From contig JAITWW010000093.1 of assembly GCA_031285085.1 (NCBI GenBank), positions 2,851 to 66,850 on the forward strand: DNA of 64,000 nt, read 5' to 3'. Shown one piece after another: positions 8,295 to 9,242 of the stretch. This DNA comes from Candidatus Methanofilum arcanum. Its GTDB lineage: Archaea; Halobacteriota; Methanomicrobia; Methanomicrobiales; Methanospirillaceae. The position numbers and the translations under genes were made by a program. Position 1 is the first letter of the stretch. Every line of letters starts with the position of its first letter. The notes below the pieces were generated by a model that was not told where the DNA came from, did not search any database, and saw only the letters and a list, made by a program, of their open reading frames with translations.

Positions 8295-9242
8295 TCATCT
8301 CACAAAAAACATCTCATTTGATCTTATACTAGTTGCAAATTCTTTTATGCGAGCATCTATTTTTTTTATCTCTATTGACTCATAAAAATGCTTTGTAAGA
8401 TCTGAAATAAATGTATTTGACAGTGAACATTGCTGTGAATCCCATATAATATCTTTATCAGATGGAGGATCATCTTTTAGAAATGATTTCAAAGGAATGT
8501 CGATCATATGTGTCTTGTGCAGTTCAGTCATATCACGCACAAGTCCAAGATGACCAGAATGCAACAGTCCCTCATCTGGATCTAAGAAAGCACCTTGCAA
8601 TGATGCAAATATATTGGATGATATCATGGTGTACCCAAGTGCAAGCATAAGATTTACAGGATCTTGGTATGGCGCGCTTGTTCTTCTCCGAAATGCAAGC
8701 ACAGGATCAACGAGTCGTGCATAAATTTCATAATACATATCATGCACAAGACGGTGTACTCTGCGAAGCTCATCGATCTTAATGAGGTACTCTATTTCAT
8801 GTAGTGCCTGGTACAAAATATCCATCTCCCCTGCACGAAGCAAAGAGCTTTGATCCACTTTCCACTCCTGCTCATACCATTCAATAGTTTGAATTCTCTC
8901 TTGCATCGCAGCATATGCAAACTCTTTTGCGAGATCAAAAGGGTGTTCTGTGCGCCTCAACTGAGCTGCACGAGTATCGGTATGAAGAGAGTAAGAAGGA
9001 GGAATAATCGTCCCTACTAACTCTCCAGCGGTTGTGTAGAACGAGATGAAAATATCTGCATGTATCAAATTTGAAAGAGCAGAAGTATGGAGCACATGCC
9101 CTCCATATAAAAGAAGATGATCAAGATCAGCAAGTGGGATCTCCTCAAACGCTCCATGCTGATTGATTCGTAGCGTATGTGAGCTTGCTTTTATGTGGGC
9201 CCCATTTCCTGTTATAACCTTCCAGGAAAAAAATTCGCTCAT
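8295..9242 (-). CDS. cas1: Cas1-like integrase/nuclease, stand-alone (no other cas genes in the window)
   Basis: The N-terminal beta domain pattern is IPLADLDHLLLYGGHVLHTSALSNLIHADIFISFYTTAGELVGTIIP. The C-terminal helical domain has PYQDPVNLMLALGYTM and GLLHSGHLGLVRDMTELHK, matching the conserved Cas1 P..D.VNA.LNYGY and GFLH....L..DL.E.FR blocks. The 315-aa length is typical of Cas1. Confidence 0.65.
   Translation of the reverse strand: MSEFFSWKVITGNGAHIKASSHTLRINQHGAFEEIPLADLDHLLLYGGHVLHTSALSNLIHADIFISFYTTAGELVGTIIPPSYSLHTDTRAAQLRRTEHPFDLAKEFAYAAMQERIQTIEWYEQEWKVDQSSLLRAGEMDILYQALHEIEYLIKIDELRRVHRLVHDMYYEIYARLVDPVLAFRRRTSAPYQDPVNLMLALGYTMISSNIFASLQGAFLDPDEGLLHSGHLGLVRDMTELHKTHMIDIPLKSFLKDDPPSDKDIIWDSQQCSLSNTFISDLTKHFYESIEIKKIDARIKEFATSIRSNEMFFVR

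Follow-up and report, generated by a model that had tools for sequence, protein, structure and literature searches.

The cas1-like gene examined here, which stands by itself among housekeeping genes in a stretch of archaeal DNA of 64 kb (the window, i.e. the whole stretch that was analysed), is best explained as an old, chromosomal and vertically inherited Cas1 homologue that would have been exapted away from both CRISPR adaptation and transposition. Its two-domain fold is kept under purifying selection while the canonical metal-binding site is no longer maintained, and the helix that once bore the catalytic glutamate has been rebuilt with invariant arginine, tyrosine and acidic residues. The Cas1-derived protein may bind DNA or a partner, without the canonical metal-dependent cleavage or integration. 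Taken as a whole, namely as an exapted Cas1 of the published Cas1-solo group 1 that binds without canonical metal chemistry and whose partner gene was deleted in this genome, we give this explanation a probability of about 0.6. The non-catalytic mechanism of DNA or partner binding, considered separately, comes close to an even chance or falls just short of it, and DNA binding is read here from the fold only.

Identity of the gene and its place among Cas1-solo genes

The reading frame of 315 codons on the reverse strand (Table 1) is present as the earlier note had described it, and both of the peptides quoted there recur verbatim in the translation. A search with Cas1 profiles, which that note had proposed, gave significant matches: PF01867 (Cas_Cas1) aligns over residues 9-286 of the protein with 145.8 bits (E=2e-42, cutoff 22.3 bits) and TIGR00287 scores 116.3 bits (cutoff 71.7), i.e. 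the cutoffs of both Cas1 superfamily profiles are exceeded and the match is full-length. None of the subtype-specific Cas1 models came near its cutoff with this protein, the best being cas1_CYANO (81.8 bits, cutoff 385). An AF2 model, for which a 19-sequence family alignment served as input (pLDDT 88.2, pTM 0.84), places its strands between residues 7 and 79 and its helices between residues 88 and 308, which is the two-domain layout of Cas1 that had been proposed from the translation. When the model was compared with the PDB by means of Foldseek, the top matches were exclusively Cas1 and casposase structures, with TM values of 0.76-0.86 to 4n06, 4xtk, 7mi9 and 6opm. The best match was the casposase 6opm, with a negligible margin over the CRISPR Cas1 structures. 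The residues that are invariant throughout Cas1 (R186, N197, G225, G230 and D237 in the window protein) are kept as well. The gene is a genuine Cas1 homologue of full length. An identical protein is already present in NCBI, labelled Methanomicrobiales archaeon, and is annotated by NCBI and JGI alike with the generic name CRISPR-associated endonuclease Cas1.

Table 1. Features in and around the cas1-solo gene (positions refer to the window)
Feature	Position	Strand	Basis and remarks
htpX-like M48 peptidase gene	7249..8133	(-)	Pfam; downstream neighbour only in this lineage
cas1-solo (group 1) CDS	8295..9242	(-)	315 aa; ORF list, Pfam and NCBIfam Cas1 matches, AF2, Foldseek, phylogeny
C-terminal alpha-helical domain of cas1-solo (~aa 86-315)	8298-8987	(-)	
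N-terminal beta-sandwich domain of cas1-solo (~aa 1-85)	8988-9242	(-)	
D237-M-T-E240 codons	8523..8534	(-)	D237, D218 equivalent, invariant; E240, D221 equivalent, variable in family
His228, codon CAT	8559..8561	(-)	E. coli H208 equivalent; kept in window, varies across family
His163, codon CAC	8754..8756	(-)	catalytic-Glu position (E. coli E141); flanked by Arg161 and Arg164, canonical Gly and Gly/Ala
Rebuilt, strictly conserved helix segment R161-E172 (R-V-H-R-L-V-H-D-M-Y-Y-E)	8727..8762	(-)	97-orthologue alignment
Pseudogene relic of VOC-like gene, first ~50 codons	9269..9411	(-)	tblastn 63% identity over 43 aa, E=1e-9; alignment
Spacer from pgk stop to partner start	9412..9571	(-)	conserved with relatives, part of 78%-identity block
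pgk (phosphoglycerate kinase)	9572..10795	(-)	Pfam PGK E=1e-113; synteny

Cas1-solo group 1, which is credited to Makarova, Wolf and Koonin 2013 and to Krupovic et al. 2014 (PMC4046053), was described in 2013/2014 as a vertically inherited group that lacks the full catalytic set, and it was found exclusively in Methanomicrobiales and without evidence of horizontal gene transfer (PMC4046053; PMC9939771). We placed the window family in an NJ tree (BLOSUM62 distances, 300 columns) with references taken from the supplementary alignment of PMC4046053. Together with the six published group 1 sequences, i.e. those of M. labreanum, M. petrolearius, M. boonei, M. palustris, M. marisnigri and M. bourgensis, the family forms one clade in 100/100 bootstraps, and this clade joins the two casposases in only 10/100. 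What had been presented as an unusual stand-alone gene, with a phylogeny suggested as a check, falls by that phylogeny within a known group.

The distribution of the family is narrow. In a homologue search the close relatives numbered only about 20, and the next matches came after a gap, at E ~1e-7; a scan of GTDB at one genome per species found relatives in 114 species. Among the 80 of these 114 matches that were listed, every one named to order or below belongs to the Methanomicrobiales (the names given being Methanospirillum, Methanoregula/Methanoregulaceae, Methanolinea, Methanoculleus and Methanomicrobiales), and three carry phylum-level names only. The viral contig collection held no member of the family, nor did the plasmid collection, in which only distant canonical Cas1 proteins of less than 28% identity were found. 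The subclade to which the window gene belongs is known from metagenomes only and shows at most 43% identity to any of the GTDB species representatives found. The window gene thus shares with group 1 its monophyly, its restriction to Methanomicrobiales, an incomplete catalytic set and a stable chromosomal context outside CRISPR; it is a new member, within a metagenome-only subclade, of this already described group, and of its identity as such we are almost certain. Our literature search returned no biochemical data on any member of group 1 and no later functional work, attention having gone to the casposons.

In the case of the surroundings the scans largely agree with what had been claimed. 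No Cas2-sized ORF is present in either flank of cas1-solo, where the longest ORF measures 31 aa, and cas2 is equally absent near the gene at about 85 related loci. The 64-kb window is free of CRISPR-like direct repeats and of tandem arrays, and neither another cas gene nor a PolB turned up among the 44 ORFs that reach 90 aa (Pfam was run on 40 of them, PADLOC on all 44). No credible inverted repeats bracket cas1-solo, the only ones being short, of low identity and attributable to chance, and no bracketing TIRs or TSDs were seen. The GC content shows no anomaly at the gene, and the sole tRNA of the window lies 31 kb away. By Pfam, the flanking genes encode an M48 peptidase (HtpX-like) and PGK, as the names htpX and pgk had implied. 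The statements that the gene is no casposon and that it occupies a housekeeping chromosomal setting outside any CRISPR-cas locus are borne out by the tree and by the Pfam, PADLOC and repeat scans.

A defence island was considered as the context of the gene as well, PADLOC having given strong matches to ZorD, DpdE, HamB, IetA and MTase_II. It was rejected because by Pfam these are generic matches to proteins with housekeeping roles, namely to an SNF2 helicase, Hel308, SMC/ScpA and HerA, and in one case to an N6/N4 DNA methylase.

Catalytic positions, selection and the helix around residue 163

In Cas1 the metal is held by the residues equivalent to E141, H208 and D221 of the E. coli protein. 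With E. coli K-12 Cas1, aligned with the family, as the numbering reference, E141, H208, D218 and D221 correspond to H163, H228, D237 and E240 of the window protein, and in three independent PDB pairwise alignments the canonical "g-i-E-G" stands opposite its "r-v-H-R". The four positions are those established as catalytic by mutagenesis (PMC4046053). The claim that the histidine and the acidic positions of the metal site are kept holds for H228, D237 and E240 and breaks down at the glutamate ligand, which is His163. The metal-binding site of the window protein is not intact, and the description of the gene as a catalytically intact copy does not survive.

The family as a whole points in the same direction. 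Among 97 orthologues the E141 column contains H (52), D (11), E (11), S (9), Y (5), N (5), A (2) and Q (2), the H208 column H (59), N (21), S (9), T (3), Y (3) and F (2), and the D221 column E (44), D (23), N (18), G (8), S (2) and A (2); the D218 column is invariant (D in 97/97). With 1.66-2.18 bits the three variable columns have entropies around the family median of 1.78 bits, so that these columns behave as ordinary sites, and the columns that drift are exactly those of the three metal ligands. Constraint has been lost on three of the four catalytic positions across the family. At least one canonical catalytic residue is missing in 96/97 orthologues, and genus-wide combinations such as S-H-D-G, Q-S-D-A and D-N-D-N occur. 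The plurality state is H-H-D-[D/E], which is found in 39/97 orthologues including the window protein; within the window subclade 10 of the 12 members have HHDE and one, P0008, has EHDE. Since P0008 carries the set E-H-D-E (1/97), the published statement that group 1 has no full set needs a footnote. Two observations count against the explanation given at the outset, namely that His, Asp, Glu and Asn are all metal-capable, so that a site of the type H-H-D-[D/E] might still take up Mn or Zn, and that the full set is present in this one member of the subclade.

The gene is nevertheless under purifying selection and maintained. The median dN/dS was 0.13 over 120 orthologue pairs (Nei-Gojobori, with pairs chosen to have dS between 0.1 and 1.5), and about 100 orthologues, by now down to 35-40% identity, retain an intact frame at full length. 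Of the 38 positions with a conservation of 95% or more in the family, none is lost from the window protein. In the window this selection continues after the loss of the partner gene that is treated below: dN/dS is 0.18 against the closest relative, L085, and the dN to outgroups is only about 10% higher from the window gene than from its sister L085.

Part of what is conserved lies directly beside the former glutamate. Within the segment R161-E172, residues R161, Y170, Y171 and E172 are each found in 97/97 orthologues and D168 and M169 in 96/97, and R176 further downstream is again present in 97/97. R161 is invariant at a position where canonical Cas1 carries Gly, and position 164, canonically Gly/Ala, is R or K in 81/97. 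In this alignment the helix that bears the glutamate in canonical Cas1 is remodelled, being strictly conserved around a variable position, and the invariant arginines beside the former glutamate might replace or occlude the metal site. The N-terminal domain is conserved in the family at least as well as the C-terminal one and has invariants of its own, i.e. H16, K18 and G47-G48-H49, and the acidic residues that are invariant specifically in the family are E139, E158, D168, E172 and D248. The pair H16-x-K18 was considered as a phospholipase-D/HKD-type nuclease motif and rejected, because the required downstream Asp is absent, by eye, in all members.

Genomic neighbourhood and the VOC-like partner gene

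The housekeeping synteny of cas1-solo is stable within lineages and differs between them. In Methanoregulaceae, genes for an Hps/RraA-like protein, an ACT-domain protein and two PaaK-like ligases precede cas1-solo in this order, and those for acylphosphatase, a large protein without annotation and PGM/PMM follow it; in Methanospirillum the order is PGK, a gene of about 310 aa, cas1-solo, (DEAD-box helicase), PGM/PMM and DUF5806. Metagenome contigs of the window subclade, whose proteins are 67-88% identical to those of the window, have PGK, a gene of 325-348 aa and cas1-solo. The conserved upstream neighbour, on the same strand, is pgk both in the window subclade and in Methanospirillum. In the window-subclade contigs the middle gene lies 19-21 bp upstream of cas1-solo or overlaps it by 4 bp. 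Its product is a divergent member of the VOC (glyoxalase / bleomycin-resistance / dioxygenase) superfamily, for which two representatives exceed the Pfam cutoff and a third is borderline; a PDB sequence search with this VOC-like partner gave no informative match. The conserved unit in this branch consists of PGK, the VOC-like gene and cas1-solo, and not of htpX, cas1 and pgk, the arrangement whose conservation in relatives the earlier note had thought worth checking. L082 carries the block orf160/TBP/AMP-ligase/HtpX in the opposite orientation to that of the window, and the genes downstream of cas1-solo are other ones in L084 and L085. The adjacency of htpX, which came about through local rearrangement, is not conserved even in the window subclade.

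The middle gene has been lost from the window by deletion. The flank of 329 bp between pgk and cas1-solo (9243-9571), which had been taken as empty, holds a frameshifted 5' relic of a VOC-like gene. In a blastn comparison, window positions 9699->9269 match positions 5239-5649 of L085 at 78% identity (E=2e-100) and window positions 9269->9100 match positions 6539-6707 at 90% identity. Relative to L085 the window misses 889 bp, corresponding to codons ~51-347 of the VOC-like gene, with the deletion junction at ~9269, which is about 26 bp ahead of the ATG of cas1-solo. The several frameshifting indels in the relic argue for an old and real pseudogenisation and not for an assembly artefact. The flank is the deletion scar of the VOC-like gene.

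In the normal state of the window and Methanospirillum branch, cas1-solo is the second gene of a tight VOC-like/cas1-solo pair downstream of pgk. The 889-bp deletion destroyed the first gene and spared its upstream region; cas1-solo now lies about 170 bp downstream of this region and is probably transcribed from it. The present promoter of cas1-solo presumably lies in the spacer at 9412..9571; no convincing TATA box was seen by eye upstream of cas1-solo. The same spacer contains a window-specific tandem duplication of 13 nt at 9542-9567. Neither the linkage of the VOC-like gene to cas1-solo nor the deletion is mentioned in PMC4046053 or PMC9939771, and a targeted literature search for Cas1 and glyoxalase returned nothing relevant.

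Competing explanations and comparison with known systems

The earlier note had suggested a domesticated integrase or nuclease, of which the domestication stands and the integrase or nuclease activity is the less likely reading. An active enzyme of this kind would rely either on a modified metal site made of His163/His228/Asp237/Glu240 or on acidic residues specific to the family that stand in for it. It would be in keeping with the strong purifying selection, with the several invariant acidic residues that lie close to the site in sequence and with the state H-H-D-[D/E], all four side chains of which are metal-capable, in the window protein and 38 other orthologues (10/12 HHDE and one EHDE in the window subclade). 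However, conservation in the three ligand columns does not exceed that of an average column, whole genera have S-H-D-G, Q-S-D-A or D-N-D-N, and the bulky Arg161 and Arg164 replace the small residues that flank the canonical catalytic glutamate. We consider an active enzyme unlikely, and do not rate it lower because the plurality state could still bind metal. A gene in decay, functionless and merely still undisrupted, might also be proposed from the degenerate catalytic residues, the decayed upstream partner in the window genome and the dN to outgroups that exceeds that of sister L085 by about 10%. Such decay is hard to reconcile with full-length frames in about 100 orthologues at 35-40% identity, with dN/dS values of 0.13-0.18 and with the retention of all 38 of the most conserved positions, which makes it very improbable.

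The two remaining alternatives would return the gene to one of the systems in which Cas1 is known to act. It could be an ordinary adaptation Cas1 serving in trans a CRISPR-cas locus elsewhere in the genome, given that the scan covered the window, i.e. most of one 69-kb MAG contig, and that the NCBI/JGI annotation is simply CRISPR-associated endonuclease Cas1. The protein nevertheless falls in the group 1 clade and not among the CRISPR Cas1 proteins, all subtype-specific models remain far below cutoff, the glutamate ligand is missing, no cas2 lies nearby either here or at the ~85 related loci, and the gene occupies fixed housekeeping positions across genera; we therefore regard a role in trans as highly improbable. 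A remnant of a casposase, or a part of some other integrated mobile element, is suggested by the best Foldseek match, 6opm, whose margin over CRISPR Cas1 is negligible. It would have to be squared with a window that has no PolB, with the lack of bracketing TIRs/TSDs and of a nearby tRNA, with an unremarkable GC content, with a grouping with casposases in only 10/100 bootstraps, with the absence of the family from the viral and plasmid collections and with stable synteny across genera, and its probability is accordingly minute.

A further reading may be considered, which is distinctly doubtful. Group 1 would then be no dead enzyme: the rebuilt helix (R161, R164, D168-M-Y-Y-E172 and R176) and the N-terminal His/Lys patch would carry out a distinct DNA transaction or a DNA-damage-related function, in the Methanospirillum/window branch together with a translationally coupled VOC protein. 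If this were true, the window genome would be a natural partner-loss variant, from which it would follow that the Cas1 part can act alone.

The gene does not represent a new class of element, Cas1-solo group 1 having been on record since 2013/2014. It does provide a clean case of Cas1 exaptation, in which about 100 orthologues keep the fold under strong purifying selection while the ligands drift and the adjoining helix is rebuilt, and it makes testable the question of what the Cas1 fold does without integrase chemistry. The VOC-like linkage, seen in one branch, and the deletion that removed it naturally from the window offer two experimental handles. For group 1 genes in general the annotation as CRISPR-associated endonuclease Cas1 is misleading. 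The details that may be new are the quantitative picture over about 100 orthologues, the rebuilt "R-x-[variable]-R...D-M-Y-Y-E" helix and the VOC-like linkage with its scar.

With published Cas1-solo group 1 the window gene shares a 100/100 clade, the occurrence in Methanomicrobiales only, the non-CRISPR context, the incomplete catalytic set and the lack of any sign of horizontal transfer; it differs in belonging to a metagenome-only subclade and in the tight VOC-like upstream gene of its branch, which is deleted in the window. With the casposases (Cas1-solo group 2; M. mazei 6opm) it has in common that it is a Cas1 homologue outside CRISPR loci in Methanomicrobia, with a comparable fold similarity. 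Casposases, however, have all four catalytic residues and an adjoining PolB, form elements bounded by TIRs and show a patchy distribution (PMC4046053), and neither the tetrad nor the PolB, the TIRs or the patchy distribution applies to the window gene. The CRISPR Cas1 proteins (E. coli YgbT, A. fulgidus 4n06 and T. maritima 4xtk) share with it the two-domain fold and the pan-Cas1 invariants, whereas the window protein has no Cas2 partner or array, has its catalytic glutamate replaced, reads 'R-x-H-R' in place of 'G-x-E-G/A', and carries the family-specific invariant motifs G-A-H-I-K, G-G-H and D-M-Y-Y-E.

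Conserved neighbours of cas1-solo

In Methanospirillum and the subclade of the window, the genes encoding a family of VOC/glyoxalase-like proteins of 310-348 aa always lie between pgk and the gene for the group 1 Cas1 homologue (cas1-solo), with gaps of 19-32 bp or a 4-bp overlap, and they were seen in 16 of the 80 GTDB loci listed. A sequence search of the PDB with this family gave no informative match. Functionally, these VOC-like proteins may be partners of Cas1-solo group 1. The sole neighbours common to the two major branches of the Cas1 family, among the loci listed, are the genes for PGM/PMM and DUF5806, which are found downstream of cas1-solo and on the opposite strand in most Methanoregulaceae and Methanospirillum loci; in the window they are not close to cas1-solo.

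Coordinates of the features discussed (window coordinates unless another locus is named)
Feature	Locus	Position	Strand	Remarks
VOC/glyoxalase-like gene	L023	9039-9968
VOC/glyoxalase-like gene	L084	1179-2156
VOC/glyoxalase-like gene	L085	5499-6545
PGM/PMM and DUF5806 genes	L023	11129-13094	opposite to cas1-solo
Perfect 13-nt tandem duplication, CTGTAGCGCATCA x2	window	9542-9567	-	directly after pgk stop codon
Mechanically called ORF	window	10878-11738	-	overlaps next by ~120 bp
Mechanically called ORF	window	11620-12642	+
ORFs behind PADLOC 'defence' matches	window	21211-23712; 35761-37251; 41437-44556; 47446-51707
N6/N4 DNA methyltransferase ORF	window	28585-29592		Pfam E=4e-33
Two very large PKD-domain-rich ORFs	window	54994-63888		1238 and 1722 aa

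Local changes in the window

Downstream of cas1-solo, the block comprising CDC48, orf160, TBP, AMP-ligase and HtpX is inverted in the window (1462-8133) relative to its relatives (L082, 5672-10127; L084, 3336-6563). The breakpoint of this local rearrangement lies just downstream of cas1-solo and the htpX-cas1 adjacency is therefore lineage-specific. The tandem duplication that follows pgk is specific to the window, since the closest relatives, L085 and L086, carry a single and slightly different copy of the 13-nt unit.

Other ORFs and defence-like matches

The counterparts in the related locus L083 of the two overlapping ORFs measure 236 aa and 316 aa, and because of these lengths the true starts in the window probably lie downstream of the first in-frame start codon. 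The PKD-rich ORFs, one of which also contains DUF3821, probably encode surface proteins.

Strong PADLOC 'defence' matches in the window were to ZorD, DpdE, HamB and IetA; Pfam assigned the underlying ORFs, which are linked to these matches as sets and not hit by hit, to Hel308-type, HerA-type and SNF2-type helicases and to SMC/ScpA, i.e. to generic housekeeping ATPases, and a defence island was rejected on these grounds. The PADLOC match to MTase_II (3e-139) probably stems from the N6/N4 DNA methyltransferase ORF, which may represent an orphan methylase, as no restriction endonuclease gene was recognised beside it.

A family member with a complete tetrad

Only one member of the family, the JGI metagenome protein P0008 (69% identical to the window protein), has a complete E-H-D-E tetrad at the positions of the E. 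coli Cas1 active-site residues, and even there the Arg residues specific to the family lie on either side of the Glu, in the motif DELRRVERLV. On account of P0008, the published claim that the full catalytic set occurs in no group 1 member calls for a footnote.
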